Below are positions 868-64,000 of a DNA stretch of 64,000 nt, in pieces (position 1 is the stretch's first letter; each line of letters starts with the position of its first letter). The notes beneath the pieces are model-generated. The model did not search any database and was not told the origin of the DNA. It saw only the letters and a program-made list of their open reading frames with translations. A program made the position numbers and the translations under genes. The DNA comes from Methanobacteriota archaeon (GTDB taxonomy: Archaea > Thermoplasmatota > E2 > DHVEG-1), in NCBI GenBank assembly GCA_963769885.1, contig CAVYNH010000006.1:448001-512000 (forward strand), given 5' to 3'.

Positions 868-1695
868 TTAATCTTTCGATGCCGTCGGCCGGTAGGCGTT
901 GATCTGGTCCCGTAGCGCCACCGCCTTCTGTCGCGCCGCCTCCGCGTAGTCCTCGCCAGCAGAGGCGTACAGGATCTCCCGAGACGAGTTGATTAATGCC
1001 ATTTCCCCTTTGTGGTTGGTCCCGTAGCGGATGGTCTTCTCCACGTCGCCGCCTTGCTTGCCGACCCCCGGGATCAAGATCGGGACATGGTCGCCGAGGA
1101 TGCCGCGGACCTGCCGCATCTCCTCCGGGTACGTCGCGCCGACCACCGCCCCACAGTTCTTGTTCACATTCCACTCGGCGATCTTCTTCGCCACAATCTG
1201 ATACAACGGCGTCCCGTCGACGTTGAGGTCCTGCAGTTCCCCGGCGGATGGGTTCGACGTCCGGCAGAGAATGAAACTGCACTTCTCCTTATAATCCAAG
1301 AACGGCGTCAGCCCATCCTTCCCCAGGTACGCGTTCACGGTTACCGCATCCGCATGGTACGTCTCGAACAGCGCCTTGGCGTACTGCTGCGCCGTGTTGC
1401 CGATGTCATTGCGCTTCCCATCCAGGATCACGAACAGCTCCTTCGGGATCACCGCCAACGTCCGCTCCAGTAGCACCGTGCCCCACGGACCCAGGACCTC
1501 GTAGAACGCCAGGTTCAATTTAAAGGCGCACGCGACATCCCGCGTCGCCTCAATAATCGCCCTGTTAAACTCAAAGACCGGATTCTTCTTCTCCTTCACG
1601 CAGACAGGGATCTTCCCCGCATCCGTATCCAGCCCCACGCATAACAGACTCTGATTTTTATGGACAATCTCCGTCAGCTTCTCATCCCACATCAT
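868..1695 (-). CDS. pyrF: Orotidine-5'-phosphate decarboxylase (subfamily 2 type)
   Basis: LCVGLD, FKLNLAFYE, DGKRNDIGNT catalytic motif, VVGAT, ILIPGVGKQGG, INSSR. Start moved to MMWDEK. Confidence 0.95.
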   Translation of the reverse strand: MMWDEKLTEIVHKNQSLLCVGLDTDAGKIPVCVKEKKNPVFEFNRAIIEATRDVACAFKLNLAFYEVLGPWGTVLLERTLAVIPKELFVILDGKRNDIGNTAQQYAKALFETYHADAVTVNAYLGKDGLTPFLDYKEKCSFILCRTSNPSAGELQDLNVDGTPLYQIVAKKIAEWNVNKNCGAVVGATYPEEMRQVRGILGDHVPILIPGVGKQGGDVEKTIRYGTNHKGEMALINSSREILYASAGEDYAEAARQKAVALRDQINAYRPTASKD

Positions 1696-1798
1696 ACTTC
1701 CACCTACAACCCCGCCAGCCCCATCACCAACCATCTATAAAAAAACTCTCACCCACCAAGAATAGGTATTTAACACAACAAATAATTCACCACCCAAG

Positions 1799-2872
1799 AT
1801 GAAAATCATCTATGGCGTCTGCTCCTGGGGCCTCGGCCACGCCACCCGCAGCCTCCCCGTCATCCGCGCCCTCATCAACGACGGCCACCTCCTCACCATC
1901 GTCTCCCACGACCGCGCCCTCACCCTCCTCAAACAAGAACTCGGCGACCACGCCCTCTACCACGACATCCCAGACTACCCCATGCTCATCAGCGACAACG
2001 GACGCCAATTCCTCGCCAAATCAGCCATCTACTGGCCCCTCTTCATCCACCGCATCGAACAAGGCCTCACCCAACTCAAAACCATCCTCGCCCACGACCG
2101 CTACCACCTCATCATCTCCGACTCCCGCTACGACATGTACAACAGAAAAATCCCCTCCCTCTTCATCAGCCACCAGATGCGCATCATGAACCCCATGCGC
2201 ATCAAACTCCTGGAGCGCGGCAGCGAACGCTTCAACCAATTCTTCTTCAACCGCTTCACCGCCGTCATCGTCCCCGACACCAAAACCCACAGCCTCAGCG
2301 GCGACCTCTCCCACAACCTCAAACTCCTCAACGAAGACGCTATCCACTACGTCGGCCCCCTCTCCGACTTCCACAAAAAACGACTCACCAAGAACATCGA
2401 CTACCTCATCAGCTTCTCCGGCCCCGAGCCCCAACGCACCATCCTCGAAACCAAAATCATGGAACAACTCCAAGACCTCCATGGCACCATCGTCATCACC
2501 CAAGGCAAACCAGAGACCGCCACCAAAACCAAAAACAAGAACATCACCGTCTACACCTCCGTCAGCCGCGCCACCAGAGAAAACCTCCTCAACAAAGCCA
2601 AAACCGTCATCGGACGCTCAGGCTACACCACCATCATGGACCTCGCCGTCACCGGCACCAAAGCCCTCCTCATCCCCACCCCAGGACAAATCGAACAAGA
2701 ATACCTTGCCACCTACCACCAACACCACAACAACTACGCCACCGTCACCCAACCCCGCATCAACCTCGCCGACAACCTCCCACGCGTCAAGGCGACCACC
2801 GGCATCACCCACGCCCCCTCAGTCAAAACCACCGTCAATAATATCCTCGACATCATCACCCAACACACCTGA
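1799..2872 (+). CDS. GT-B glycosyltransferase (GT28 C-terminal / MJ1255-like)
   Basis: GLGHATRS N-terminal motif; GRSGYTT and IPTPGQIEQ motifs. Confidence 0.85.
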   Translation: MKIIYGVCSWGLGHATRSLPVIRALINDGHLLTIVSHDRALTLLKQELGDHALYHDIPDYPMLISDNGRQFLAKSAIYWPLFIHRIEQGLTQLKTILAHDRYHLIISDSRYDMYNRKIPSLFISHQMRIMNPMRIKLLERGSERFNQFFFNRFTAVIVPDTKTHSLSGDLSHNLKLLNEDAIHYVGPLSDFHKKRLTKNIDYLISFSGPEPQRTILETKIMEQLQDLHGTIVITQGKPETATKTKNKNITVYTSVSRATRENLLNKAKTVIGRSGYTTIMDLAVTGTKALLIPTPGQIEQEYLATYHQHHNNYATVTQPRINLADNLPRVKATTGITHAPSVKTTVNNILDIITQHT

Positions 2873-2930
2873 TAAAACATCCTTACCGGAACCAGTATAA
2901 ACCGCAAGGCCTTATATCCCGATTGAGAGA

Positions 2931-4730
2931 GTGCGGAAACAGACTTCTTCACCATTTACCATTATAAAAAAATGGTATTTTTGGCTCATCCTCATCACCA
3001 CACTCGCGGTCGTACTGCGCTCCATCCCAGCCTGGACCAACGCTGCCTGGGGCAGCGACTTCGGCATCTACTACGGCCTCACCAAAGCCTTCCTCAACAC
3101 CGGTAACCTCATCAACGCCTACAACGGCTGGGGCGCCTCCTACCAATACTTCCCCGTCCTCTACCTCGTCACCGGCGCCGCCCACATGCTCTCCGGCCTC
3201 GATGTCCTCTACATCCTCCCAAAAATCGCCCCGATCTTCGGCGGCCTCACCGTCACCATCCTCTACTTTATCGTCTACGAACTCCTCAAACGCCGCGACA
3301 TCGCCCTGCTCTCCGCCGCCTTCCTCGCCGTCGCTCCCTTCCACGTCTACCAGACCAGCCACGCCGCCCCCCTCACCATGGGCCACTTCTTCATGCTGCT
3401 TTCCCTCTACCTCTTCCTCAAATACCTCCACAACCACCGCTACCTCGTCCCCCTCATCCTCTCCACCATCCTCCTCATCATGTCCCACCACCTCACCACC
3501 TACTTCTACATCATCAGCCTCTTCGGCATCGTCATCTTCCAAAGCATCTCCACCCCCCTACGCGACCTCAAACGACAAGTCACCTACGTTACCGCCTGCA
3601 GCCTCATGGCCTTCATCTACTGGTTCACCGTCGCGGTCCCCGTCTTCAACGTCTACCTCGGCAACAACCTCTTCGGCTCCCCCGGGATCCTCGTCGCCGC
3701 CTTCTACCTCGCTTTCTTCGGCCTCCTCCTCGCCTTCACCCGCCCCCAGATGCAAGCCTGGCGCCGCCACTTCGTCCTTAAACACTCGCCGAAAACCCCG
3801 AGCCCGGCCCGAGCCGGCATCCTCTTCGCCGGCACCGTCATCGGCCTGCTCTCCACGATTCTCGTCTTCTTCTTCATCCCCTTCCCAGTCTCGGTCCTCC
3901 GGATGAACACCACGACCTTGCTCTACTCCATCCCCGTCATCATCTTCACCGGCATCTGCGCCCTCGGCTTCGAGTACCTCCGCGAACTCGAGAACCACCG
4001 GATCATCCAAGGCTGGTTCTTCGCCATCTTCATCTCTTTCGTCTTCGCCTTTCTCACTGGCGATACCAAGCTCTTCCCCGACCGCCACATCGAATACCTC
4101 ATGGTCCCCATGTCCATCATCGCCGCCTACGGCCTCTACCGCTCTCTCAACAAACTCCATGTCCCAGCCTTACCCAGCCTCTCCTTAAGCAGAATCCCTC
4201 ACCGGCAATGGCTGCTCGTCGCCATCACCTGCTTCCTCGTCTGCACCAACAGCATGGCCGTCTACCCCGCGAAGAACTCCATCGGCGGCATCAACGAGAC
4301 CATCTCCGAGCCCGCCCTCAGCGCCATCCAGTGGATGACCACGACCCTAGACAAGAACCAGACGCTCGTCGCCTCCGACCTGCGCCTCACCAAGATCGCG
4401 TGGGCCGAAGGCTTCAACACCACCTTCGAGGACACCAACGAGACCTGGACGAGCACCGACTGGCACGGATGCCTCTCCGACCTCGAAGGCAACGAGACCA
4501 GAGGCCGCATCACCACTATCCTCATCGACGACGTCATGCAGACCAGCGTCGTGAACCTCGCCCTCCTCCGGAACGAATACATGACGAACGAATCCTACCT
4601 CAAATTCGCCTCCGAGCCCTTCGAGCGACTCTATCGTAACGAGACGCTGAATGCCAACGGTGAGGTCCTCCACTGGGTCGAAGTCTACGCCGTCAACTGG
4701 ACCTACATCGAACAGCAGACGACACAATAA
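2931..4730 (+). CDS. Polytopic membrane protein, probable GT-C glycosyltransferase
   Basis: Many TM segments, first-loop GSDFGIY, SHHLT motif and a soluble C-terminal domain. Follows a GT gene. Confidence 0.6.
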   Translation: MRKQTSSPFTIIKKWYFWLILITTLAVVLRSIPAWTNAAWGSDFGIYYGLTKAFLNTGNLINAYNGWGASYQYFPVLYLVTGAAHMLSGLDVLYILPKIAPIFGGLTVTILYFIVYELLKRRDIALLSAAFLAVAPFHVYQTSHAAPLTMGHFFMLLSLYLFLKYLHNHRYLVPLILSTILLIMSHHLTTYFYIISLFGIVIFQSISTPLRDLKRQVTYVTACSLMAFIYWFTVAVPVFNVYLGNNLFGSPGILVAAFYLAFFGLLLAFTRPQMQAWRRHFVLKHSPKTPSPARAGILFAGTVIGLLSTILVFFFIPFPVSVLRMNTTTLLYSIPVIIFTGICALGFEYLRELENHRIIQGWFFAIFISFVFAFLTGDTKLFPDRHIEYLMVPMSIIAAYGLYRSLNKLHVPALPSLSLSRIPHRQWLLVAITCFLVCTNSMAVYPAKNSIGGINETISEPALSAIQWMTTTLDKNQTLVASDLRLTKIAWAEGFNTTFEDTNETWTSTDWHGCLSDLEGNETRGRITTILIDDVMQTSVVNLALLRNEYMTNESYLKFASEPFERLYRNETLNANGEVLHWVEVYAVNWTYIEQQTTQ

Positions 4731-4748: not shown

Positions 4749-5699
4749 TCAATGAAACAGATACGGGCTCAGCGAGGAGACGATCGACATCGGGGAGGCG
4801 AAGACGTCGGTGGCGAAATACTGGTACCAGCCGCAGCCACGAGGGCAGGCCTGCATCGCCGTCCGCGCCTCATGTGCCTTCAGAGTCTGGAGGAACTCCA
4901 TAAAGCTTCCCTCGGTGAAGTTATAGAGATGCTGGCCGATGGTGCGGCAGGGATAGAAGAGGCCGCCATCCGAGTCGATGATCACCGAGGACGTCGAGCA
5001 GCCATGCTCGCTGTTGATATTATCCAGGAATCCCCGGGGCGTCGTAATGGTCTGGGGATACAATTTCTTCAACCTTAGGATTTCCTCGCGGAACCGGGCG
5101 GGGTCGGGGTAGAAATCATCCGTGCCGTCGAGATGGCAGGCGGGCATGACGACCGTCCGGGCATGGACGTCGAACACGCGCTTGACCTTCTCCTCAAGAG
5201 CCGGCAGGGTCTCTTTCGTGACAACAATCTGGATGCAGATCTCCGGGCCATAGGACTGGAACTCCGAGAGCCGGTCAAAGAACTCGAGGTTATCATGACC
5301 TTCATCGATGCTGATGTGCAAGTAGTCGATGTATTTTGCATACTCGGTCATGGGGCTTTTGTCGAGGAGGTGGCCGTTGGTGGTGAAGAAGAGATAGAAG
5401 GGCTTGGTGGCGGCGTGTGTGAGGATCTCGCCGAGGTCTTTTCGGATGAGGGGATCCCCGCCTTCGAGGCTGAGGACGATGATGCTGGAGGTGGCGAGGT
5501 TATCGAGGACCTTGAGGACCTGGTCGGTGGGGAGGTCCGGGGTTTTTTCTTTCCAGACGTTGCAGAAGGCGCATTGGAGGCTGCAGTGGTGGGTGACTTT
5601 GAAGGAGGCGTAGAAGGGGTAGATGGCTTCGCCTGCGAGCCGGTTGGCGAGGGCGTAGCGGACGGTGGAGAGGTATTTGGTGAGCGGGAGGGTTTTCAT
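4749..5699 (-). CDS. Radical SAM protein with C-terminal Cys-rich (SPASM/Twitch-like) domain
   Basis: CSLQCAFC (CX3CX2C), GGDPL, TTNG, C-terminal IDSDGGLFYPC and CPRGC. Start set at MKTLPL. Confidence 0.85.
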   Translation of the reverse strand: MKTLPLTKYLSTVRYALANRLAGEAIYPFYASFKVTHHCSLQCAFCNVWKEKTPDLPTDQVLKVLDNLATSSIIVLSLEGGDPLIRKDLGEILTHAATKPFYLFFTTNGHLLDKSPMTEYAKYIDYLHISIDEGHDNLEFFDRLSEFQSYGPEICIQIVVTKETLPALEEKVKRVFDVHARTVVMPACHLDGTDDFYPDPARFREEILRLKKLYPQTITTPRGFLDNINSEHGCSTSSVIIDSDGGLFYPCRTIGQHLYNFTEGSFMEFLQTLKAHEARTAMQACPRGCGWYQYFATDVFASPMSIVSSLSPYLFH

Positions 5700-5823
5700 G
5701 TGGTCCTTGGGTGGGGTGTGTATTGAGTGAAGTAAGATAAGCATTGTCTTTTGGCTCATGGTGGTTTTATAGGGAGTGAGGCGGCGTCACCTTTTAATAG
5801 GGATACGGTATTCAGCACTTCCT

Positions 5824-5991
5824 ATGCCAAAGAAAGCTGAGAAGTGCAACTCCTGCGGCAAGGGGCTGCTCGAGCAGGGTTCGACGACGTTTCCGTGCCC
5901 GAGCTGCGGCACCATGGTCGGCCGCTGCAATAACTGCCGCGAACAGAGCATCGACTACATCTGCCCGCAATGCAGCTTCCGCGGGCCGTAG
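5824..5991 (+). CDS. Zinc-ribbon protein DUF1610 (HVO_2753 family)
   Basis: Four CxxC motifs ending CPQCSFRGP; conserved position upstream of aEF-1beta. Confidence 0.9.
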   Translation: MPKKAEKCNSCGKGLLEQGSTTFPCPSCGTMVGRCNNCREQSIDYICPQCSFRGP

Positions 5992-6018
5992 AAGGATTTT
6001 GGGGAGGCTTGCGAGCGT

Positions 6019-6291
6019 ATGGGAGAAGTCATCGCGTTGATTCGTATGATGCCGGACGGCGTCCTGAGTGATGCGGAGATGGACGTCATCGCCGGTGAAG
6101 TCCGTAAGATTATTCAGAAGCCGATCCGCCTTGGGCGCGTCGAGGTCAAGAACATCGCCTTCGGGTTGAAGGGGCTGGATGTGACGATCGCGGTGCCCGA
6201 CTCCGAGGGCGGGCTGGACCCGATCGTCGAGAAGCTCGGGAAAATAAAGAAAGTGGATAACGTCGAGGTCGTCGATGTCGGCCGAATCTAA
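6019..6291 (+). CDS. ef1b: Archaeal elongation factor 1-beta
   Basis: 90 aa, IAFGLKGL motif, adjacent to DUF1610. Confidence 0.92.
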   Translation: MGEVIALIRMMPDGVLSDAEMDVIAGEVRKIIQKPIRLGRVEVKNIAFGLKGLDVTIAVPDSEGGLDPIVEKLGKIKKVDNVEVVDVGRI

Positions 6292-6989
6292 GTGAGTTTG
6301 CTGACGGTCAGCTGTCTGACCTGGTCCTGGCAGAGGATCAGGGCTTCTTTTCCGTTTTCCGTGGGGTAGTAGACGGGGTAAGCGCTGTTGCTGGTGTCGC
6401 CTTCGACGAGCTCCGCGAAATGCATCTTGTTGAGGTGCCACTTGACCACGTGGTGGTTCATGTTGAGCGCGTGGGCGATCTCGAGGAGATGGCGGCCGGG
6501 GTGGTCGGTGACGTACTGCAGGATGTCGTGCGCGTTCTTGTTGCGCAAGACGGACTCGGCGATGGCGCGCTGTCGGACCTCGAGGCCGCCTTCGACGAGG
6601 TAGTAGACCTTCTTGCCGCCGATAACGCGGCTGCGGACGAGGTTCGTCTGCTCCAGCTTCCGCAGGTGCCAGGCGGCGTTGCTTGGCTTCAGGTCCAGTT
6701 CCCTGGCGATCTCCCGGAGGTGTGAGCCGGGGTACTCGTCGATGTACTCATACAGATGTTTTCTGGTTTCGGTGTCGAGGACGTTCTCCGGCGTCACGTA
6801 CTTGATGCCGCCGAAGAAGAACAGGAACCCCAGGGCCACGGCGACGATTACGATGATGATCGCCGTCGACGACCCGCCGATGCCGTCCGACGGCGCCGTC
6901 GACGCCCAGGCTACGGGAGCAAGAGAGAGCAGGAGCCCACTCACGACAATAACCACGCAGTACGATGTCCGCTGCACGCCAAATCCCAT
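6288..6989 (-). CDS. Membrane-anchored tandem winged-HTH transcriptional regulator
   Basis: Two N-terminal hydrophobic segments, then two wHTH units (YPGSHLREIARELDL..WHLRKL; HPGRHLLEIAHAL..WHLNKM). Confidence 0.8.
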   Translation of the reverse strand: MGFGVQRTSYCVVIVVSGLLLSLAPVAWASTAPSDGIGGSSTAIIIVIVAVALGFLFFFGGIKYVTPENVLDTETRKHLYEYIDEYPGSHLREIARELDLKPSNAAWHLRKLEQTNLVRSRVIGGKKVYYLVEGGLEVRQRAIAESVLRNKNAHDILQYVTDHPGRHLLEIAHALNMNHHVVKWHLNKMHFAELVEGDTSNSAYPVYYPTENGKEALILCQDQVRQLTVSKLT

Positions 6990-7087: not shown

Positions 7088-8791
7088 CTACTTGTGGGTG
7101 AACACCCCGGTCAGCGTAGGCTCCCGGGCGTCGATCCGCACGAACCCGTACCGTTCGAATTGGACGATCTCCCCGACGGGGAGGCCGCCGACCGCCTGCT
7201 CCGCGTACCCCTCCGTGCTCTGCAGACTCTCAGGGTTGAACTCTTCATGGACGAAGAGGGACCCTGGGCGGACGATGGTCATCCGGATAAACTGGTCCGT
7301 CGTCCACTGCAGTTTCACGGACTCCGGCAGGATCGTCTCACCAGCGTACCCGCCGGCCAGCTCCTTGCCGGCATGCGTGAGCTTGATGTTGCAGAGGTCC
7401 TTGAGCCGGAAGACATCCCCTTTCTTGAACCGAGCGACATCCTCCCGCGGCACATAGAACACGGACGAAAGCGCGATTTCCCGCTCGCCCATCGCAGCCG
7501 CCGGATGCAGCCGAACCCGCTTCACCTTCAACGGCAGACCCGAGACGGTCAGTTTCACCGGATCCGGCACGAAAAAGAACCGCTTCACCCGAGGATCCAG
7601 AATCTTCCGATTCGCAGCCTCGACCAGGCTGAAGTCCACCACCGACTCCACCTTCGAAGTCCCCTGGGACACGACGAACTGGCGGATCGCCTCCGGCACG
7701 ATCCCCCGACGACACAGACCGCGCAGCGTCGGCAATCGCACATCATCAAACCCGGAGACCAGCCCCTGCTCGATGAGCGGCTTGATCTTCCGCTTCGACA
7801 CCGGCATCCCCTCGATGGAGAGCCGCGCGAACTCCATCAACTGAGGCTGCCGCAGCCCGAGCTTCTCCAGGATATGGAAGTACACCTCATCCCGCAGCTC
7901 ATACTCCTTCGTCCGGAACGGATGCGTCACCCCACTAAGGCTATCCTCGACCGCCCCCGCAAAATCATACGTCGGCCACAGCCGATACCGTGTCCCGGTC
8001 AATGGATGGGGGGATTCGATCACCCGGAACAACGTCGGGTCACGCATCGCCGTGTTCTTACTCGCCATATCGCCCTTCAGACGCAGGATCCCGTTCTCCA
8101 CCGATCCATCGATTAGCCCGTCGAGCAGCGCCCTCGAATCCTTGCGAGTCCGACACGCACAAGCCATCCCCTTGAACCGCGACTCACGAATCACCTCGGA
8201 AAGACAGGAACAGACATACGCATCACCCTGAACAATCAGCTGCCGGGCAAGCTCATAGTGCCGCGGAAGATGATCGGAGGTGTTGTATTCCTCATCCCAC
8301 GCGACCCCCAGCCACCGCAGGTCATCCCTCTGCGCCTCGTAGAACTCCTGCTGCGCATTCTCCGGGTTCGTGTCATCAAACCGCAAGATGAATTTCCCGT
8401 CGTACATCCGCGCGTACTCGCTGTCGATGATCGCCGCCTTCGCATGACCGATATGTAAATACCCGTTCGGCTCCGGCGGAAACCGGGTGACCACCCGCCC
8501 CTTCTGCGCCTCAGGCAGCGGAGGCAGCGCATACTCGCGCTTCTTCCTCTCCCGATGGAGGAGCTCAGGGGCAATCGCGGTCAGCTCCGTCCGCTGCTGC
8601 TCCACCGTCAACGCGTTGACCGCGGCGACGGCCTCATGGACAACGGGCATGATCTCCTTTGGGGAGACGGTGGTGCCTTTGAAGGCAGCGATGACCTTAC
8701 CGGCGACCGCCTTCTCGTTCGCCTTCCCGTCGAACTGCACGGCGTTCTGCAAGGCGTACTTACGTGCCTCATCGAAAAGCGAGCCGGGCAT
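7088..8791 (-). CDS. gltX: Glutamate--tRNA ligase (archaeal)
   Basis: VTRFPPEPNGYLHIGH, LRFDDTNP, PTYDFA, VSKRK. Confidence 0.96.
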   Translation of the reverse strand: MPGSLFDEARKYALQNAVQFDGKANEKAVAGKVIAAFKGTTVSPKEIMPVVHEAVAAVNALTVEQQRTELTAIAPELLHRERKKREYALPPLPEAQKGRVVTRFPPEPNGYLHIGHAKAAIIDSEYARMYDGKFILRFDDTNPENAQQEFYEAQRDDLRWLGVAWDEEYNTSDHLPRHYELARQLIVQGDAYVCSCLSEVIRESRFKGMACACRTRKDSRALLDGLIDGSVENGILRLKGDMASKNTAMRDPTLFRVIESPHPLTGTRYRLWPTYDFAGAVEDSLSGVTHPFRTKEYELRDEVYFHILEKLGLRQPQLMEFARLSIEGMPVSKRKIKPLIEQGLVSGFDDVRLPTLRGLCRRGIVPEAIRQFVVSQGTSKVESVVDFSLVEAANRKILDPRVKRFFFVPDPVKLTVSGLPLKVKRVRLHPAAAMGEREIALSSVFYVPREDVARFKKGDVFRLKDLCNIKLTHAGKELAGGYAGETILPESVKLQWTTDQFIRMTIVRPGSLFVHEEFNPESLQSTEGYAEQAVGGLPVGEIVQFERYGFVRIDAREPTLTGVFTHK

Positions 8792-9781: not shown

Positions 9782-10811
9782 AGGTCACTTCCGTAGTGGA
9801 GAGCTTGTCGATGGAGTCCGCGCCGACGAGGAACATTGTGGTGCGCAGCTCACGGAGGATGGTTTCGCATTCGAGGACCGTGGCCTTCGCGTCCTTGAGC
9901 GCGGGTTTGAGCATGGCATGGGCGATGCCCGCGGCGCTGGCCCCAAGGGCGAGGGCCCTTGCGGCGTCCAGACCGGTGCGGATGCCGCCGGTGGCGATGA
10001 TCGGCAGCTCCCAGTTTGTGGCCTTGCCGACTTCGAGGATGGAGGTAGGAGTCGGGATTCCCCAGTTCCAGAAGGTGGTGCCTTGCCGGCTGTTGACCAT
10101 GTCTCCTTTTGCTTTGGCGCGGTAGTGTTCGACGGCCGCGAAGGAGGTGCCGCCGGCACCGCCGACGTCAATGGCCGCGATCTTGGTTTTTTTCAGGGAC
10201 CTGGCGACGTCTTCGCTGATGCCCGCTCCGCTTTCTTTGATGAGGATGGGGCGGCTGAATTCTCGGGAGAGCATGTCGATGATGTCGAGGCATCCTTTGG
10301 CGCGGGCTTCGCCCTCGGGCTGGATGGCTTCTTGGAGGAAGTTGAGGCAGACGGCGAGGACGTCCGCGTCGATCATGTTGACGATTTTTTCGGCGTTCGC
10401 GAGGATGTCTTGTTTTGACCAGAGGACCATTTGAGAGGCGCCGATGTTGGCGATTTTGAGGGGGATGTTGTAGTCGGTGATGACGCTGTAGGTGTCGATG
10501 AGTTTGTCGTTTTCGAGGGCGGCGCGTTGGGATCCGACGCCGAGGGCGAGCTGGTGTTCGGCGGCGGCCGCGGCGAGGTGTTCGTTGATCTTTTTTCCTT
10601 CGGGGTAGCCGCCGGTCATTCCCGAGAGGACGATGGGGGCGCCGAGGTGTTTGCCCAGGAGCGTGGTGGTGAGGTCGATGTCTGGTTCGTTGATTTCGGG
10701 GAGCGCGTTGTGTTTGAGGTTGACGTCGTCCCAGTAGTTGTGGGTCATGGCGACGTTTTCTTTGGCGGAGATTTGGATGTGGTCGCGTTTTCGTTCTTCC
10801 GTCTGGTTCAT
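9768..10811 (-). CDS. fni: Type 2 isopentenyl-diphosphate delta-isomerase
   Basis: RKRDHI, MTGG, GVGSQRA, NIGA, QEAIQPEG, GAGGTSFA. Confidence 0.96.
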   Translation of the reverse strand: MNQTEERKRDHIQISAKENVAMTHNYWDDVNLKHNALPEINEPDIDLTTTLLGKHLGAPIVLSGMTGGYPEGKKINEHLAAAAAEHQLALGVGSQRAALENDKLIDTYSVITDYNIPLKIANIGASQMVLWSKQDILANAEKIVNMIDADVLAVCLNFLQEAIQPEGEARAKGCLDIIDMLSREFSRPILIKESGAGISEDVARSLKKTKIAAIDVGGAGGTSFAAVEHYRAKAKGDMVNSRQGTTFWNWGIPTPTSILEVGKATNWELPIIATGGIRTGLDAARALALGASAAGIAHAMLKPALKDAKATVLECETILRELRTTMFLVGADSIDKLSTTEVTYDID

Positions 10812-54799: not shown

Positions 54800-54808
54800 T
54801 CCCTTGAC

Positions 54809-55909
54809 TCATTTTTTCACAGCCGCTGTTATGGACTCGACGACGAACTGCTGTTGCTCATCCGTCAACTCAGGATACATCGGGATGGAGACGATCTCCT
54901 CCGCCAACCGCTCAGTGACCGGGAACTGCCCCCTTCGCCACCCACGGGAGGCATACGCTGGCTGCAGATGCAACGGGATCGGATAATGAATCCCACACTC
55001 AATCCCCTGACCAGCCAGCGACGCCATCACCCCAGCACGCCGCTGCGTCCGAATCACATACATGTAATAGACATGCTTCGCCCCAGGTGCCTCATGGATC
55101 CGCTCCAGTGACGACGGCAACGCCTCATCATAGAAGCGGGCATGAGCACGGCGCAGATCCGTCCACCGCGACAAATGACGCAGCTTCACGGAAAGCACGG
55201 CAGCTTGAAGGGCATCCAGCCGGTAGTTGTATCCTTCAGCCTCATGCTCATACTTTTTCGTGCGGCCATGATTCGATAACATCCGCAGCCGCGCTGCGAG
55301 CTCCGAATCATTAGTTGTAATCGCCCCGCCATCGCCATAGCACCCAAGGTTTTTCGCGGGGAAGAAACTATAACAGGCGACCCTCCCGTACGCCCCGGGT
55401 TGCCGACCTCGCCATTCCGCCCCATGGGCTTGTGCAGCGTCCTCAATGATGGCGATGTCTCGGGCCTCTGCCATCTCCTGAAGACGGTCCATGTCTGGCA
55501 TCTGCCCATAAAGGTCGACGACGATGATTGCCTTCGTCTTCGGCGTCAGTGCCTTCTCCACACGATCGACATCAATCAGGCCCGTCTCCGGGACCACGTC
55601 CACAAAACGAATGATGCCGCCGACATACGAGATACACTCGGTCGTCGCAATAAACGTGTTCGGGACGGTGAGTACCTCGTCTCCTTTCATCACCCCGCAG
55701 CCAAGGAGGGCGAGATGCAGCGCCGCGGTTCCGTTGGAACATCCAATCGCGTGTTTCATGGAAGTATACGCCGCAAACTCATCCTCGAAACCCTTGACTC
55801 GAGGGCCCATGATGAAGGAGCCGCTTTCCAAGACCTTATTGATAGCCTGGTCTACCTCTGATTTGATGGAATGGTAATTCGCCTTGAGGTCCACCAGCGG
55901 TATTTTCAT
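54809..55909 (-). CDS. DegT/DnrJ/EryC1/StrS aminotransferase (WbpE-like)
   Basis: NGTAAL, IEDAAQAHG, SFFPAKNLG.YGDGG, NYRLD. Confidence 0.9.
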   Translation of the reverse strand: MKIPLVDLKANYHSIKSEVDQAINKVLESGSFIMGPRVKGFEDEFAAYTSMKHAIGCSNGTAALHLALLGCGVMKGDEVLTVPNTFIATTECISYVGGIIRFVDVVPETGLIDVDRVEKALTPKTKAIIVVDLYGQMPDMDRLQEMAEARDIAIIEDAAQAHGAEWRGRQPGAYGRVACYSFFPAKNLGCYGDGGAITTNDSELAARLRMLSNHGRTKKYEHEAEGYNYRLDALQAAVLSVKLRHLSRWTDLRRAHARFYDEALPSSLERIHEAPGAKHVYYMYVIRTQRRAGVMASLAGQGIECGIHYPIPLHLQPAYASRGWRRGQFPVTERLAEEIVSIPMYPELTDEQQQFVVESITAAVKK

Positions 55910-55913
55910 GGGT

Positions 55914-56390
55914 TCACTCTCGTCGCAGCGACCGCAGCTTTCGAGCTGGGTTCCCTGCATAGATTCCCGGAGAGGTAATGTCTTTGGTAACGACAGACCC
56001 GGCGCCAATAACAACGTGATCAGTGATGCAGACCGGAAGGATTGTCGCATTCGTCCCTATCGACACGTGGTTGCCGATGGTGGTTGGTTTCCACAACGAC
56101 TGATCTCCGCCCGCTGGTCTGCCGACTGAGAAGAGATCGTTGACGAACTTCGCCCCGTGGGAGATGAAACAGTAGTCTCCAATGGTCACAAGCGAGCAGA
56201 TGAAGGCGTGGGATTGGATCTTGCAGTTACGGCCGATCTTGACCGTGCTTTGAATCTCGACAAACGGACCGATGAAGCAGTTATCGCCGATCTCGCATTC
56301 GTAGAGGTTCACGGGCTCGACGACGGTCACGTTCTCTCCGAAGGTCACGTCTCTGATTTGGGCCTTAGACAGCTTTGGAGTGTTCGTCAT
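55914..56390 (-). CDS. Hexapeptide-repeat N-acetyltransferase (WbpD-like)
   Basis: Left-handed beta-helix repeats, FVND, SIGTNATILP, AGNPAR. Confidence 0.88.
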   Translation of the reverse strand: MTNTPKLSKAQIRDVTFGENVTVVEPVNLYECEIGDNCFIGPFVEIQSTVKIGRNCKIQSHAFICSLVTIGDYCFISHGAKFVNDLFSVGRPAGGDQSLWKPTTIGNHVSIGTNATILPVCITDHVVIGAGSVVTKDITSPGIYAGNPARKLRSLRRE

Positions 56391-57420
56391 TTAGCACGTT
56401 CCCTTAAGTTTCCTACCCGATGCTTTGTATATTTTTTCAATGATTTGAACGGTCTTGAGGCCGTCGAGCATGTCTGTGGTGATTCGGCCGCCGTGGACAA
56501 GGACATCGACGATGTTTTGGTAGACTTTGTCGTGATTGGACATCGATCCTTGGGCTTTGCCGTAGATGTTCGGCGGGTTTCCGAGGGGGAGGCTGGGGAT
56601 CGTATAGCCCTCGATATTTTGGTACTCGAGGATGTTGAGGGTACTGTCCGCCGATCTTCACAGTCCCTTTTTCACCGAAGAGCGTCAACGAGCCCTCCAT
56701 GTTCTTGCCGTAGCTGTCGATTGTGAAGTTGATCGCCCCGATTGCCCCGGAGGAGAACGAAAGGATGGCGACGCCCGTGTCCTCGAATTCCACGGTGTCA
56801 TGGTGCAGGTAGTTTTGGGTATATACTTTCACGTCCTCGACGTCTCCGATGAGCCAGTAGATGAGGTCGATGAAGTGGCTGTACTGGGTGAAGAGGGTGC
56901 CTCCGTCTAGCGCGAGTTTCCCCCGCCAGTCGGATTCTCGATAATAGTCTTGGTTCCTGTTCCAGAAGCAGTTGACTTGGATGTTGATGATCTTGCCGAG
57001 TTTCCCGGCGTCGATGGCCTGTTTTAGGGCGGCGACGGGGGGGTTAAACCGGTTTTGCTTGACGATAAATAGCCGGCGGTTGGTCTCTTCTGCGGTATGG
57101 ATCATGCGTTCGCAGTCGTGGACGGTTGTGGCCATGGGTTTTTCGCAGAGGACGTTGCAGCCTGCCTTTAACGCCGCGATGGTATGATGCGCATGGAGTC
57201 CATTGGGCGTGCAGATGGAGATGAGGTCCAGGGTTTTTTCCTCGGCGAGCATGTCTTCGAGGGAATAGTATGCCCGGCAGTTGTAGGCCGCGGCGATGGT
57301 GTCGGCTCGGTCGTGTTTGATGTCGCAGACTGCCGCGAGGTCGCCGATGGCGTTTGCGTGTCGTGCGTGTTGGGAGCCGATGTGGCCGACTCCGAGGACT
57401 GCGATACGGAGTTTTTTCAT
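56391..57420 (-). CDS. Gfo/Idh/MocA oxidoreductase (WbpB-like), 1-nt frameshift
   Basis: GVGHIG, CTPNGLH, CEKP, VKQNRFNP, WRG..DGG. Deleting one base at about 56640 gives KIGGQYLNILEY...GSMSNH, ending at 56391. Confidence 0.88.
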
Positions 57421-57564
57421 GTCTCTTGCGGATAATTCTTCTCCCCTATTTAAACAATGACCGCCGTTTCCAGGTGGAGAGGAGGGTGTGGGTCTGTGGG
57501 GATTCCAGGGAAGGATGATTTTATATAGCTCTAGTGGTCTTTTTGATTGGGGTGAATTGGTACT

Positions 57565-58260
57565 ATGAAGAAGATCTTGGTAGTTGGGGCTGTCCTTGTT
57601 GTGGTCAGTCTCTTAGGCATCTCGTTGTCATCGGCAGTGGTTGTTCGGCCGTCAGAGCCGGCGAGTGAAGCGACTCTTGACCAGAATCCTGTATGGGAGG
57701 CGGCAGAGCGTGTGTTGCCTGCGTCGGTTGCGAAGCAGATTTTGACTCTGGCGCAGGATCATCCTGAAGTCGCTTCAGCCATGGCCATGAGGGGATCGGT
57801 TGGGCAGCTGGCTAATGGATCTAATACGTCGTTTTTGACGAAGATGTGGCGGGTCGTGTTCTACTACCGCCTCTGTCGCTTATTGTTCAGTTATGGCGTG
57901 TTCACCGTGTTTCCCACGAAGGTCATGGGAGTCCGTGTATTGCATTGGGCGATCCAGGTCTTGAAGTGGGTTCAGATTGGTTTATTGCTTGGTCTGATTG
58001 AGGTCCCGCAGCCGCCACCGGTGCCACCTGAGATTTCGTTTGTGGCGGACGATACGAACCGGACTATGACGGTGACGGCAGTAAATTTCTCGCAACCTGT
58101 TAACTGGTCCGATATCGCTCAGGTTGGGAATGGCACGTGTGACCCCTTGCCGAATGGGACCGTGGAGGCCGGGGATATGATTACGAACTGTTCCGGGTGG
58201 ATCATCCTAGTATATGTGCCGTATTCGGCATGGCTGTACGATCATCAGTTCCCTGAGTGA
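57565..58260 (+). CDS. Hypothetical exported protein with a small beta-rich C-terminal domain
   Basis: Signal peptide, amphipathic middle, Pro linker, C-terminal PEISF..WSDI..GTVEAGDMITNC domain. Confidence 0.7.
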   Translation: MKKILVVGAVLVVVSLLGISLSSAVVVRPSEPASEATLDQNPVWEAAERVLPASVAKQILTLAQDHPEVASAMAMRGSVGQLANGSNTSFLTKMWRVVFYYRLCRLLFSYGVFTVFPTKVMGVRVLHWAIQVLKWVQIGLLLGLIEVPQPPPVPPEISFVADDTNRTMTVTAVNFSQPVNWSDIAQVGNGTCDPLPNGTVEAGDMITNCSGWIILVYVPYSAWLYDHQFPE

Positions 58261-58278
58261 AGTCTTCGCTGGGTTGTC

Positions 58279-59274
58279 TTAGAGCTTGCTGTAGACGAGT
58301 CCTCGCAGGAAGCCGAGGCCATATCCGACGTGGATGAGGAGGTAAAAGAAAGGGCTGGTGATGACGACTGCAAGCCGTCGGATGACCTGCAAGATGCTTA
58401 TTATTGAGAGGAGGATATAGGCGACGACGAGGAGGGGGACAACCCAGATTGGAATGAGGAGGGTGGCGGTCAGCGCCACGAGGGAGATGCCGCCGATGAT
58501 GAGGACTGGTCCGAGGAGATGGAAGTATCTCAGGGTCGTGGGATGTTTTTTAACCATTTTCGCGCGCGCGATCCCGTAGCGGTACATCTGGTGCCAGAGT
58601 GACCGGATGGTGGGTCGTTTGAAGTGGAGGACCTTGGTGTTGGGGGTGTAGAGGATCTTGTAGCCGGCGTCGCGGAGGCGGATGTCGAGCTCGTAATCTT
58701 GGCCGCACCAAAAATCCGGGTCGAATTTCCCGACTTGTTCGACGGGTTTGCGGCGGTAGCAGGCGAAGGAGATGTGGTCGGTGAATCGTTCGGTAGGGTA
58801 CACGGCGTTTTGCGAGAAGAAGCTCTTGCCGCCGAGGAAGCTGAGGAAGGCGGCGGCGGAGGCTTGGGCGATGAAGCCTTGATCTGGGGGGGAGAGGTTG
58901 GAGCATCCGACGGCGGCGACGTCCGGTGGCTGTTGCTGGAGGGTGAGGGCGAGGACGGTGAGGAGGTTTTGTTCGGCGATGACGTGACCGGAGTAGTTCA
59001 TGAGCATGTCGGTGGTGGAGTGGTCGATGCAGAGGTTGCGGCCGATGGCGGTGTTGCCGGTTGGGTTGTCAATGATTTTGATGGTGGGGTGTTTTTTGGC
59101 GTAGTCTTCGGCGATGGCTCGGGTGGCGTCGGTTGAGGGTCCGATGGCGAGGAGGATCTCGGTTTTATCTTTGGGGTAGTCTAAGTTGAGGAGGGCGTCG
59201 AGGCATTGCCTGAGGGTTTTTTCTTCGTTTCGTAGGGGTATGAGGAATGCGACTTTGGGATACTCGCATTGCAT
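58279..59274 (-). CDS. Glycosyltransferase family 2 (ExoA-like)
   Basis: IPLRNEE, GRN, QDYELDIRL, QMYRYG, C-terminal TM helices. Confidence 0.88.
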   Translation of the reverse strand: MQCEYPKVAFLIPLRNEEKTLRQCLDALLNLDYPKDKTEILLAIGPSTDATRAIAEDYAKKHPTIKIIDNPTGNTAIGRNLCIDHSTTDMLMNYSGHVIAEQNLLTVLALTLQQQPPDVAAVGCSNLSPPDQGFIAQASAAAFLSFLGGKSFFSQNAVYPTERFTDHISFACYRRKPVEQVGKFDPDFWCGQDYELDIRLRDAGYKILYTPNTKVLHFKRPTIRSLWHQMYRYGIARAKMVKKHPTTLRYFHLLGPVLIIGGISLVALTATLLIPIWVVPLLVVAYILLSIISILQVIRRLAVVITSPFFYLLIHVGYGLGFLRGLVYSKL

Positions 59275-59379
59275 GGGGGGTAAAAAACAGCTGATTCTAT
59301 TTAATTGTACTTGCTGGGTCGTGTGGGAGCGAAGTGGAAATATTGCGGAAAAGAGGGAAATGGTTGGTTGAGTGTGTCC

Positions 59380-60993
59380 TTATTTACGGTCTTCGTCTGA
59401 TTCTTCCTTGATTTCTGTTTTGATGTATTTGTACATCTCGCGTGGGTGGAGGATGTTAAGGAAGAACCTAAGGTCTTTTTTGGTGAATTCGCGCATAAGG
59501 GAGAGGATTCCGAGGTAGAGGAGGAGGCCGACGGCGGCGACGAGGAGAACGGTGTACCAGCGGTTGATGAGGACAAGGGTGCTGACGGCGTAGAGCGCGA
59601 GGCCCATGAGGGCTCCGGCGAGGATGTGCAGGAATGTTTTGAGTGGGATTATTGTTGAGTGGACGAGTCGTTTTGCAGAGATTTTTAGGAGCACGAGTCC
59701 GACGAAGATTGCGGTGCTGGAGGCAATGGCGGCGCCAGTGGGGCCGTTGATGCCGAGGGGGGCGAGCAGTCCCTGTTGTGGGACGAAGAGGAAGTCGAGG
59801 ATGATGTTGATGAGGCAGATGATGAGCCCGTTTTTCGCCGCGACCTTCGGCTTGTTTACTCCTGTGATAAGGGAAGTATGGAGGGCCATGTAGGTGTAGA
59901 TGAAGGTGTAGATGGAGAGGGTGATGAGGACGCTTATCGCTGGGTAGAAGGAGCTGTTGAGCATGATGCTGATGATTGGTTTGGCGAAGACGATGATGAC
60001 GACGATGACTGGGATCATGATCATGCTGATATATCGTTCCGCCATTGCAAGGGTCTCGCGTATTTTCCCGTAGTCAGCGGTTGAGTGGAATTGTGAGAAG
60101 GCGGGGAAGAGGACGAAGGTCATGGCGGCGGAGATGATGAGGAGGATTTGGATGATTTGCTGGACGGAGAAGTAATAGCCGACCTCGACGGAGGTCCAGA
60201 AGAATCCGATGACGATTCGGTCCAAGTTCGCGGAGAGGATTAGGAGCACTGAGATGAGGAGGGTCGGGAGGGCGAAGCTGAAGTAGTTTTTTGCCAGTGC
60301 CATGCTCGGTCGTTTCACTGGGCATTTTCTGAGGAACCAGAATCCAATGATCGCTGAGGCAATCATGCCGAAGACATAGGCCATGGCCTGGGATCCGACG
60401 GCGTGGGTTGCGATGAATTGCTGCAGTGGTGTGAGTGTCTCGGGCCAGATGATGAGCGGGGCGATGCCGGCGATGGTGACTCCTGCGAGTGCGACAAAGA
60501 TGGTGAGGGGGACTTTCACGATGTTCTCCGTGACGGCCGTGAGTTGTTGTTTCGCAATTTCGCCTTTTCCGTTAAAGGTCACCATGGTGATTTGTTGGAG
60601 GTTGTAGAAGAAGTAGTAGATGACAAAGACGTAGACGATGGATTCTGTGGTCGCGTCAGTGAAGCCGCCATGAAGGAGAGTTTTCCATAAGAAGATGCTA
60701 GTGAGGACAACAGCGACCATGAGCAGGTTGAGAAGTATTTTTATGGTGGCGAAGGTGCCGATGCAGGTGCTAAGGTCTTGGCCTTCGGAGATGCGTTTGA
60801 TGTGTGCCTGGGTGAAACCAAGGTCGCCGATGATGTTGAAGATGCTGACAAAAGCCATGGCGAACCCGATGATTCCGAGGGCTTCGGGGGCGAAACCGCC
60901 CCACAGCTTGGCGAGGATGAGGAGTCCGAACCATCCGAGGAACCGGGTGAAAAACTGTGCTCCGATAACGAGGAATGATTTTCTTGCCAGCAT
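59380..60993 (-). CDS. Oligosaccharide flippase (Wzx/MOP family)
   Basis: About 14 TM segments, DLGF, DRIVIG, VGYY, NIILD..P, GAAIAS. Confidence 0.88.
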   Translation of the reverse strand: MLARKSFLVIGAQFFTRFLGWFGLLILAKLWGGFAPEALGIIGFAMAFVSIFNIIGDLGFTQAHIKRISEGQDLSTCIGTFATIKILLNLLMVAVVLTSIFLWKTLLHGGFTDATTESIVYVFVIYYFFYNLQQITMVTFNGKGEIAKQQLTAVTENIVKVPLTIFVALAGVTIAGIAPLIIWPETLTPLQQFIATHAVGSQAMAYVFGMIASAIIGFWFLRKCPVKRPSMALAKNYFSFALPTLLISVLLILSANLDRIVIGFFWTSVEVGYYFSVQQIIQILLIISAAMTFVLFPAFSQFHSTADYGKIRETLAMAERYISMIMIPVIVVIIVFAKPIISIMLNSSFYPAISVLITLSIYTFIYTYMALHTSLITGVNKPKVAAKNGLIICLINIILDFLFVPQQGLLAPLGINGPTGAAIASSTAIFVGLVLLKISAKRLVHSTIIPLKTFLHILAGALMGLALYAVSTLVLINRWYTVLLVAAVGLLLYLGILSLMREFTKKDLRFFLNILHPREMYKYIKTEIKEESDEDRK

Positions 60994-61167
60994 GAGGTCA
61001 GGGGGAACATCATTCTTTGTCTTTTAAAGATGTATCCTTAGCACCCTCGGTTTTAAGAAAGGGAAAAAACCGTTCACCAAACTGCGGTGTCTGGGTTCAA
61101 CTCGCCATTGCAAATTGATTCAGGTCCATGGGAAGCAAAACAGGTTCAGGGAAATCACTGCTGCCGA

Positions 61168-62452: not shown

Positions 62453-63001
62453 AATTCTCTCCTGGCTTTTGGGTCCAAGGTGGTATACTCGTTGTCTCCG
62501 ATGTAGTACAGCGGTTGTCGATGCTTGATGTTCAACAACTCGTTGGTGAACGAGTCATCGTCCGCGGTGATTGCGACCACCTCACCGATGAGAAGATCAT
62601 GGTCACCGATACGGACGGCCTGGTGGAGGGTACATTCGAGGTGGGCGTAGCCTTCGGCGAGGCTCGGGGTTTTCAGCTTCGGTACTCGGTTCGAAGGTGA
62701 GGCGGGTTTCCCGGGCCTTGTCTACGGTTCGCCCAGAGTGCGTTCCACAGTAGTCTGCCTGTTGAGCGAGTGAATAGGGGATGAAGTTGATGACGAACTC
62801 CTTGGTTTTGGTGATGCAGCCGTGGGAGTAGCGTCTGGGTGAGACGGAGATGCCGTAGAGTGGGGGGTTGCGGGAGATCGGGGTGTGCCAGGCAAGCGTG
62901 ATGATGTTGGTCTTGCCATGGTCGTCGTTGCTGGTGACGAGCACGGTCTGCATGGGGAAGGCGTAGTGGTGGTAGGATGCGAGGGGTCGTGGTGTTTTCA
63001 T
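62449..63001 (-). CDS. Flavin reductase family protein, 1-nt frameshift
   Basis: NIITLAW, PPL, EFVINF, CGTHSG..DK. Deleting one base at about 62681 gives AHLEC..GDHDLLIGEV, ending at 62449. Confidence 0.88.
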
Positions 63002-63234
63002 GAGGAGTGTTCCTCCGTGGTTTTTCGGATGGCGTCGAGGAGGCCGTGGGCGTAGTTGATGCAGCCGAAGGCGGTGAAGTAGTCGCGTTTGTTGTAGTAG
63101 TATTTGGTGTCTTCGTAGTATTGGCAGGCGAGGGTGAGGACGGCGGTCGTCGGTTCGGGGAGGCGGGGTGGGAGGGTTTTTTGGTTTTCTTCGAACATGG
63201 TGATGTCCGTGGCGACGCGGGTTTTTTGGTCCAT
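62998..63234 (-). CDS. DUF357 family protein
   Basis: YYEDTKYY..DYFTAFGCINYAHGLLDA. Confidence 0.85.
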   Translation of the reverse strand: MDQKTRVATDITMFEENQKTLPPRLPEPTTAVLTLACQYYEDTKYYYNKRDYFTAFGCINYAHGLLDAIRKTTEEHSS

Positions 63235-63418
63235 GGTCTCTTGCCTTGACTTCGGGTGAGCGTCTTGGGTGGCTTTAAATGTTGTTTTGTGTAGTTTTGT
63301 CGTTTTGTATCCGATATTTTGTTTCGTCGTCTGTGAGGCGACAAAAGTCGAAAGTTATTTAAAGCCGGGAGTCCACGGTTTTTTCATAGGTTCACGGTCT
63401 TAATTTGGATGTGGATGC

Positions 63419-63799
63419 ATGAGCCGTCGTGTTGGGACCCGGTTGTTGGAGGGCGCAGTGCAGGATCTCTTTGACTCGCGGGCGGAGGCGCGCATCTATC
63501 TGTTTCTGCTTCGTCATGAGGGGGCGCTGGGGGAGGAGGTGATCCGCGGGACGCGGCTTCATCCGAGTACGGTGCGGGAGCTGCTGTCGCGGATGTTTGC
63601 GCATCAGGTTATTGTGCGCCGGAAGCTGAAGACCGATTCGATCGGGAAGAACCCGTACCTGTATTTTGCGGTGTCGCCGGTGGTGTTGTTGCGGCGAAGG
63701 GCGAAGACGCTGGAGCAGCGGTTGAACCTGATTGCCTCGTACGGGAGCCGTCAGGAGACGGCGCATGTCCGTATCTGGGTCCGGGAGGAGGCGTCATGA
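63419..63799 (+). CDS. Winged-HTH (TrmB-like) transcriptional regulator
   Basis: EARIYLFLL, LHPSTVRELL, YLYFAVSP. Overlaps the next gene (ATGA). Confidence 0.75.
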   Translation: MSRRVGTRLLEGAVQDLFDSRAEARIYLFLLRHEGALGEEVIRGTRLHPSTVRELLSRMFAHQVIVRRKLKTDSIGKNPYLYFAVSPVVLLRRRAKTLEQRLNLIASYGSRQETAHVRIWVREEAS

Positions 63800-64000
63800 T
63801 CGCGCATCGGCTCGCCCAGGTCCTGGTACGCCGGCCGAAGACGGTCTTGCTGGTGTTTACCATTGTCACTGTTCTTGTCGGGCTGCAGATGCATAACGTC
63901 TACATGCAGTCGGAACTGACCACGTATCTGCCACGCGATTCCCCGATGATCGCGCAGTGGGCGGCGCTGAACCAGGAGTTCCAGATCGGCTCGACGATTA
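63796..64000 (+). CDS. MMPL/RND family transporter, 5' part
   Basis: MIAHRLAQVLVRRPKTVLLVFTIVTVLVG..TTYLPRDSP..NQEF. Runs off the window edge. Confidence 0.7.
   Translation, partial: MIAHRLAQVLVRRPKTVLLVFTIVTVLVGLQMHNVYMQSELTTYLPRDSPMIAQWAALNQEFQIGSTI

Follow-up and report, generated by a model that had tools for sequence, protein, structure and literature searches.

A stretch of 64,000 nucleotides from the genome of an uncultured archaeon of the Thermoplasmatota (the window: positions 448,001 to 512,000 of contig C6 in the genome that we label G000) carries a strand bias in base composition that changes sign in tracts of a few kilobases. The bias is confirmed to be real and genome-wide. It has the form of a sawtooth whose start sites are fixed in intergenic DNA and include the canonical replication origin, oriC, and we show that neither gene direction nor selection is sufficient to account for it. 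From each of approximately 200 such sites a tract some 3 kb long extends to one side or to both, and within it the strand running 5′ to 3′ outward is driven towards C and A. The genome comprises 2.09 Mb at 55% GC and is 92% complete; metagenome runs matching the window come from wetland and freshwater sediment, with no RNA run among those listed. The closest named loci belong to uncultured Thermoplasmatota or Thermoplasmatales assemblies, and we would tentatively place the genome near Thermoprofundales (DHVEG-1).

Results

A positional strand bias

The original prediction for this DNA named eight C/A-rich and ten G/T-rich segments of the plus strand. All have the predicted sign, with GC skews of −0.21 to −0.51 and +0.25 to +0.45, respectively; across the 18 segments |z| ranges from 4.8 to 20 and the GC skew at four-fold degenerate sites is 0.32–0.97 in size. 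Per-kilobase GC skew in the window spans −0.62 to +0.48 and is mirrored by AT skew, and the large contigs behave alike (standard deviation [SD] of per-kilobase GC skew 0.23–0.25; correlation of GC with AT skew, r, −0.7 to −0.8). With genes called by our own caller, individual genes have four-fold GC skews between −0.98 and +0.97, with an SD of 0.47 against a binomial expectation of 0.10. An assembly artefact is excluded: independent short-read contigs match, those of run X3 being nearly free of differences and those of a second strain agreeing at 95–98%.

It had been proposed that the same strand stays C-rich or G-rich across divergent gene pairs, and the sign is indeed held on both sides at 1760 (−0.22/−0.52), 17370 (−0.24/−0.57), 33950 (+0.40/+0.26), and 63330 (+0.46/+0.20). 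Genome-wide, the four-fold skew of the plus strand correlates at +0.44 across divergent and +0.42 across convergent pairs. The skew survives when coding strand and promoter distance are allowed for, and it peaks at synonymous sites. Gene strand accounts for 35% of the variance, to which transcription-unit position, or distance from a promoter, adds 0; G exceeds C in 19–29% of coding blocks at every promoter distance. There is a constant preference of the coding strand for C, of about −0.5 logit. Subtracting it leaves a positional G-versus-C logit of the plus strand, hereafter the field, with an SD of 1.3. Fields computed from four-fold and from two-fold sites agree (r 0.94), and the field is visible in intergenic DNA and stop codons as well and switches sign within genes.

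The absolute field exceeds 1 at 49% of coding positions, including those of the single-copy glutamyl-tRNA synthetase (GluRS), orc1, and ribosomal protein genes. At the extremes, 88–92% of four-fold sites are C or 77–80% are G. The suggestion that proteins are reshaped was well founded: those encoded at 17553 and 27530 contain 17–19% Thr, 6–7% His, 8–10% Pro, and 1–2% Val (genome values 7.9, 2.6, 5.1, and 6.6%), and those at 16101 and 35328 contain 12% Val, 8% Gly, and 6–7% Arg. Across the genome, passing from the C/A to the G/T extremes, Thr goes from 10.5 to 4.9%, His from 4.0 to 1.9%, and Val from 4.7 to 10.4%. Relative to its congener G001, G000 has gained Thr, His, Asp, and Asn in C/A zones and Arg, Gly, and Val in G/T zones. 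Genes of low GC content at third codon positions (low-GC3 genes, which are recent) are nearly without skew, with an excess SD of 0.26 against 1.43.

Shape and location of the steps

Along the plus strand the field drifts from C to G within genes and steps back in gaps of all four orientations, the steps being mostly larger in longer gaps. Counting steps above 1.2 logit, we find 213 down-steps (G/T to C/A), of which 48 are two-sided and 165 one-sided, and 115 up-steps. The claim that G-to-C changes are the sharper therefore holds for single abrupt gap steps. It does not hold for complete flips between +1 and −1, whose median width is 1.85 kb from G to C and 1.3 kb from C to G, because a complete G-to-C flip is often made of two one-sided steps around a neutral plateau. 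One-sided tails decay from −1.9 to −0.9 by 1.5 kb and reach zero by 3 kb. When gaps are modeled as sources emitting a C/A strand 5′ to 3′ outward, the cross-validated R2 is 0.72–0.77, against 0.61 for the reversed polarity; left and right source weights within one gap are independent (r −0.01), and opposing tracts cancel, leaving GC content unchanged. A fixed period, for which a check had been proposed, was not borne out, spectral analysis giving only a broad peak at 11–15 kb.

The canonical origin lies at C6 261,744–261,915, where two inverted origin recognition boxes (ORBs) surround an AT-rich stretch upstream of orc1, with nucS directly after orc1, a layout kept in G001 and in three other relatives (G014, G015, and G018). 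It is a two-sided step (+1.8/−1.2; rank 11 of 446 gaps) that fades within 3 kb and recurs in G001 and G018, and its outward strand is C/A-rich. Both oriC and orc1 look intact. Replichore-scale skew is absent from G000: means of 20-kb blocks are −0.09 to the left and −0.05 to the right of oriC, with about 140 flips each way.

What marks the other steps is not a motif. A search of 5- to 8-mers and an ORB scan at the switch points, also proposed earlier, found no enriched k-mer beyond the skew itself, and among a handful of intergenic ORB-like matches the full inverted pair occurs at oriC alone. Nor are the steps simply promoters. The onset of the bias is 100–200 bp upstream of the TATA box, at 45 good promoters the bias is opposite over the whole length (start sites being sequence-inferred), tails run through terminators into convergent genes, and the ribosomal protein operon turns neutral beyond 3 kb. 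Gap AT richness (rho −0.2) and TATA strength (rho −0.11 to −0.21) are each weakly correlated with step size, and 106 of 144 steps (74%) have the direction of the gene downstream. The DNA that lies upstream of tRNA genes is G/T-biased on the sense strand, even where it belongs to co-directional genes (+0.54). The steps are also associated with gene turnover. Strong down-steps occur at 12 of 24 gaps that hold extra DNA in G001, with no up-step among them, against 17 of 89 conserved gaps (p 0.004), and at 14 of 28 G000-specific insertions against 28 of 154 conserved spans (p 0.001). Steps are enriched 4-fold at sites where gene content differs from the congener, and low-GC3 genes border steps 48:11 in the same polarity.

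The original prediction attributed the pattern to a local strand-asymmetric process with fixed start sites, and that much is supported, the process not having the look of selection. The further idea of many replication start zones gains from the fact that oriC is a two-sided step of the same polarity; the other roughly 200 steps are not shown to be origins: they lack an ORB, are one-sided in three quarters of cases, and coincide with sites of gene gain and loss.

Substitution spectrum

With the field taken from two-fold sites only, the four-fold potential on the C/A strand is +1.53 for C, +0.48 for A, −0.56 for T, and −1.45 for G; it is complement-antisymmetric, and the geometric GC/AT ratio is near-constant. 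The C/G contrast is the strongest and the least context-dependent, and the C/A ratio climbs from 4.4 to 12.6 in C-rich zones. We aligned 40 kb to a strain 96–98% identical, reading the unpolarised differences under an equilibrium assumption. In strong zones of the C/A strand, per-allele T>C and G>A are up about 4-fold or more, A>G is down 3.5–4-fold (p 2e-6), and C>T is down 2–4-fold; T alleles differ between the strains at 36 of 60 sites in strong and 93 of 663 sites in weak zones. Divergence is flat at synonymous sites, and at the amino-acid level the strongest zones exceed the rest 2–3 times. Because the reverse rates fall as well, damage of a purely additive kind near the steps becomes a weaker candidate.

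With the measured rates, a bias model covering all six exchanges fits the composition table with a deviance of 419, against 5165 for transitions only, using one factor of up to about 8. The mismatch endonuclease EndoMS prefers G/T, G/G, and T/T and spares C/C, A/C, and A/A (PMC4838380), and all four mismatch contrasts (G.T, G.G, T.T versus A.C, C.C, A.A) carry the sign expected of EndoMS/NucS, although the order of C.T and A.G departs from that of TkoEndoMS.

Occurrence among relatives

The skew is strong in G000, G001, G014, and G015, which represent three genera (excess SD 0.7–1.4; GC 42–57%), weak in G018, and absent or weak in the other 14 family members, mostly of 29–39% GC. On GluRS and Orc1 trees the trait is patchy, with three changes; a single origin is compatible with the GluRS tree. 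The skew accompanies longer branches in G000. Domain positions correspond to those of G001 (r 0.70, slope 0.43, 263 genes) and in part to those of G015 (0.49); with G014 they do not (r 0.03), and G014 shows the same sawtooth direction. Two one-contig relatives of the unskewed type, G003 and G008, also lack replichore-scale skew, so that a loss of single-origin replication in G000 cannot be demonstrated. A weak form of the same bias is possible in further genera, T/C and G/A shifts co-varying (r 0.83–0.96) in small samples from G024 (L053), L001, and L003. A metagenome scan for the pattern returned no match.

Repair and replication genes

In G000, NucS is encoded beside orc1, with nuclease-motif and clamp-binding residues conserved as judged by eye. 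RadA, gyrase, uracil-DNA glycosylase (UDG), and EndoV are present; MutS, a Y-family polymerase, a reverse transcriptase, NurA, and a histone were not found in this genome at its 92% completeness. RadA is also present in unskewed relatives, which have the same complement of one MCM and two Orc1 genes. Loss of proofreading is rejected, since the main PolB retains all three of its exonuclease motifs, and RNA-templated synthesis is rejected because no reverse transcriptase was found and the bias sets in upstream of the start site. The split DP2 and split second orc1 genes are probably assembly indels, about 5 of 127 tested genes being frameshifted, among them the essential aCPSF1; these single frameshifts lie at C3 46,537 (DP2) and at C7 394,899 and C7 398,550 (second orc1 and aCPSF1).

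A second PolB gene lies at C3 57,974–61,214 behind genes for a RadA-like and a small protein and occurs also in the unskewed G003, G007, and G008; we take this locus to resemble the PolB2 damage-tolerance operon. NurA was not found in five family genomes (G000, G014, G015, G008, and G017) despite a HerA-like ATPase, and a histone was seen in 2 of 31 genomes.

Domains and other features of the window

Domains of the window in which the plus strand is C/A-rich (amino) begin with 900–4700, which takes in pyrF on the minus strand and two genes on the plus strand (four-fold GC skew −0.77, field −2.0) and includes a downward step in the divergent gap 1692–1798 (field −1.4 to −3.1). That at 7400–8500 lies within the minus-strand GluRS gene, which is of archaeal type and whose coding strand is here G-rich (four-fold −0.56, field −1.7). 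The domain 16100–20000 covers a divergent pair (four-fold −0.78), the minus-strand gene at 16101 encoding a Val/Gly-rich and the plus-strand gene at 17553 a Thr/His/Pro-rich protein. One-sided steps open the domains 24128–25400 (0 to −1.4), which underlies a minus-strand gene, and 27297–28400 (−0.1 to −2.7, in the gap 27297–27529), where the onset, located by eye, is about 120 bp upstream of a TATA box. A two-sided step in the gap 37415–37808 (+1.0 to −2.7) opens the domain 37415–40000, whose tail passes a tRNA-Arg gene into a convergent gene. A weak domain at 44029–46600 follows a step from 0.3 to −0.9, and the strongest C/A domain of the window, at 50323–56000, follows a one-sided step from 0.0 to −2.3, with a four-fold skew of −0.97 over 541 sites and a tail through convergent genes.

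G/T domains of the plus strand, in which C/A falls on the minus strand, lie at 5300–6400 (four-fold +0.87 at 5300–5800), at 10000–11900 (+0.83, reaching +0.97 in the gene 10808–11590, with an abrupt end near 11800), at 13000–14160 over serC, ending at the left edge of a block missing from G001, and at 21400–23500 (+0.82). A long one at 30000–37415 covers four plus-strand and two minus-strand genes with peak fields of +1.0 to +2.4. The remainder are at 41000–43426, with a leftward step in the gap 42351–43426 (+1.7 to +0.3); at 48200–49477, with a one-sided step (+2.6 to 0.0) in a gap that differs in a related strain; at 57000–61167, closing in a two-sided step at 60993–61167 (+1.0 to −1.3); and at 62700–64000, over a divergent pair.

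Two structured segments had been placed near flips. That at 581–860 contains a true conserved RNA, on the minus strand at 585–835 just 3′ of pyrF, which accounts for no flip; the other, 50404–50498, folds no better than shuffled sequence (z −1.1). The RNA is found in 11 of 31 genomes, with double changes at 15 of 55 predicted pairs. Its first hairpin has a K-loop-like ATGA/TGA cap and is followed by ACA, as is its last hairpin; in our reading it looks like a multi-hairpin archaeal box H/ACA guide RNA; it has no match in Rfam, where the tRNA-Arg was the sole match.

Several other features deserve mention. At about 53445, the UDP-glucose dehydrogenase of a related strain (L057 14803–17505) contains a LAGLIDADG intein that G000 lacks, and the 1.8 kb flanking it are twice as divergent as the rest of that contig. 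A seryl-tRNA synthetase (SerRS)-like gene of this Thermoplasmatota genome, at 22626–24128, encodes a tRNA_bind_4 domain, presumably a mark of the methanogen-type enzyme. The step gap near 37487–37570 holds, on the minus strand, a possible 27-codon open reading frame with its own TATA box and a T-rich terminator, as judged by eye. The large protein encoded at 38902–42372 has 11 InlB B-like (Flg_new_2) repeats and an Ig domain, and the field changes sign along the array. A single frameshift in a methyltransferase gene at about 20130 is probably an assembly error.

Discussion

We suspect that the sawtooth is written by strand-invasion or primer-extension tracts that start from fixed recombination-prone sites and are filtered by mismatch type, a reading whose chances of being right and wrong we judge to be evenly balanced. 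The sites would be break- or melting-prone places, namely oriC, tRNA-linked and other sites of gene turnover, and long AT-rich gaps; the 4-fold enrichment at gene gain and loss is an indirect sign that they are prone to recombination. There a DNA 3′ end would invade or be extended, through recombination-dependent synthesis or gene conversion between chromosome copies or strains, and the C/A strand would be the new or invading strand. EndoMS/NucS, the sole mismatch system found, would cut and erase G.T, G.G, and T.T (G.A being lost as well); with C.A, A.C, C.C, and A.A (and C.T) surviving, the new strand would drift by T>C, G>A, G>C, and T>A. The bias could enter through fresh errors of a polymerase or through differences that already exist and are resolved unevenly. 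Conversion tracts of up to 4–5 kb are on record in Haloferax (PMC8223754). More tentatively, and with the larger doubt on our side, we speculate that most of the chromosome is copied or renewed piecewise, in tracts of a few kilobases whose priming takes place at hundreds of fixed intergenic sites prone to recombination, NucS specificity writing the direction of each into the sequence.

A number of observations weigh against this proposal. No tested gene tracks the trait: of 18 families with roles in replication and repair, none distinguishes genomes that have the skew from those that do not (UDG, EndoV, NucS, HhH-GPD glycosylases, PolB, PolD, RNase HII, RNase HI, gyrase, MCM, RadA, HerA-like ATPase, dCTP deaminase, histone, MutS, Y-family polymerase, NurA, and DprA). 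Relatives that lack the skew have NucS all the same, so that it can be a filter at most. The same composition results if the C/A strand is new and filtered or if the G/T strand is new and carries wobble errors, so that the spectrum is a fit rather than proof, and once rates are freed all four spectrum models become near-equal, with deviances of 170–202. The best model needs C.T to survive better than A.G, and TkoEndoMS cuts T/C more than A/G. Long AT-rich gaps both tolerate insertions and hold steps, a confounding only partly removed; the 74% of steps that run along the downstream gene imply that transcription contributes something; and G014 and G015 are skewed yet have no step at oriC. Recombination-dependent replication in Thermococcus is described as starting anywhere, with no fixed sites (PMC13136892). 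Finally, the strain comparison spans only 40 kb, with uneven local divergence.

The main rival is multi-origin replication, in which forks from hundreds of intergenic sites about 10 kb apart would expose the lagging strand to more G.T, G.G, and T.T errors and leave the leading strand C/A-rich, as in budding yeast. It would explain why oriC is a strong two-sided step whose outward strand is C/A-rich, the polarity of yeast origins (PMC3459929) and of third positions in Haloferax volcanii (PMC12999951), and it agrees with the lack of replichore-scale skew, with a flat total synonymous divergence under forward and reverse rates that move oppositely, and with the lagging-strand action of PolB in Thermococcus (PMC13136892). 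What makes us think it rather unlikely is that only 48 of 213 steps are two-sided, that neither an ORB nor another motif was found at them, that the link to gene turnover is not predicted, and that the single MCM and two Orc1 genes are those of unskewed relatives. A fork model, moreover, limits the rise in T>C to about 2-fold over neutral zones, against the approximately 4-fold seen, a figure that local divergence may inflate. Resection or gapping from fixed break sites would leave the G/T strand single-stranded and open to C>T and A>G deamination, as in the mitochondrial heavy strand. Its polarity suits 5′-3′ resection, the 3′ tails being the G/T strands, two-fold sites shift as expected, and a transitions-only model fits adequately once rates are changed by up to 3-fold; with measured rates that model is the worst of all, a hand calculation predicts a C/A ratio of about 2 in C-rich zones, far from the rise observed, and the contrast that is strongest and least context-dependent is C/G. 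UDG and EndoV are present, and NurA and a C-inserting Y-family polymerase were not found in G000. We consider this explanation quite improbable.

Transcription-linked damage, repair, or R-loop processing, unannotated antisense promoters included, draws on the orientation of 106 of 144 steps, on sense-only sources fitting with an R2 of 0.63 against 0.33 for antisense-only ones, and on the weak correlation with TATA strength. It has difficulty with a bias that begins upstream of the TATA box, is opposite at 45 good promoters, crosses terminators into convergent genes, and dies within the ribosomal protein operon; unit position explains nothing, co-directional genes that lie upstream of tRNAs show a G/T bias of their sense strand, and the sign is opposite to that generally known for non-template-strand deamination. 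It, too, strikes us as quite improbable. Selection on codons, RNA structure, or protein composition is largely refuted, and we give it very little credence. The constant coding-strand preference and the domain positions kept with G001 speak for it; intergenic DNA and stop codons follow the field, the sign changes within genes, orthologues in G014 are uncorrelated, recent genes are little skewed, and amino-acid differences between strains rise in the strongest zones.

Little mutation bias between the strands is attributed to archaeal genomes (PMC12999951), and a literature search of incomplete coverage found no description of such a pattern in archaea. Where archaea begin origin-independent replication and gene conversion is an open question to which this genome offers about 200 predicted start sites, each with a direction and a length of tract, together with close relatives of which some have the trait and others lack it. 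If most of the chromosome is indeed renewed in tracts primed in this way, one could read from the skew map where origin-independent initiation or gene conversion takes place in an archaeon, and the same process could also account for genetic repeats with intense nucleotide skews (GRINS) in NucS-bearing actinobacteria. Whatever the cause, Thr, His, and Val are halved or doubled across the proteome, which can mislead phylogeny, binning, and claims of adaptation.

The pattern works like yeast origin skews and like GRINS and fails defining features of both. Replication-associated skews are known in Saccharomyces cerevisiae, Kluyveromyces lactis, and Candida albicans, the yeast leading strand being enriched in C and A (PMC3459929). 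Yeast origins and human N-domains share with G000 the intergenic jumps and gradual return between them, and the yeast polarity is that of oriC in G000; here, in contrast, the host is a prokaryote, there is one step per 10 kb or so, most steps are one-sided and lack an origin motif, four-fold skew reaches 0.98, and proteins are reshaped. In GRINS, GC and TA skews are intense and correlated (patches of G+T versus C+A), proteins are recoded, and there is a tie to gene conversion; correlated skews of this type are present in G000 (GC versus AT skew, r about −0.8 per kilobase on large contigs). GRINS, however, are duplicated repeats of more than 500 bp (>80% identity) in modular genes, whereas the bias in G000 covers about half of all coding positions, extends to core genes present in single copy, and keeps one fixed sawtooth polarity, a comparison made without a genome-wide repeat survey. 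In H. volcanii the GC skew of third positions and non-coding DNA has its maximum at the origin (PMC12999951), a polarity that, as at oriC of G000, is the reverse of the bacterial one; that skew is cumulative at chromosome scale, unlike few-kilobase tracts. The same 2026 survey found skews in archaea to be weaker than those of bacteria by a factor of three to four and held NucS unable to act strand-specifically (PMC12999951). Against bacterial replichore skew, G000 has no single flip at oriC and terminus, and the strand leading away from oriC is C/A-rich, not G-rich.

Vertebrate mitochondria also have G/T- and C/A-rich strands, gradients with distance, and Thr/Val shifts in their proteins, with one polarity per genome and a transition-driven spectrum; G000 differs in its hundreds of reversals and its dominant C-versus-G contrast. 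The processes that we invoke, RadA-dependent synthesis independent of origins and conversion tracts of kilobase length, have their counterparts in the recombination-dependent replication of Thermococcus and Haloferax (PMC11005403, PMC13136892) and the intermolecular gene conversion of H. volcanii (PMC8223754). As far as the excerpts of these reports go, fixed start sites and a compositional footprint are not described there (PMC11005403, PMC13136892, PMC8223754), and it is in these two respects that G000 stands apart from them.

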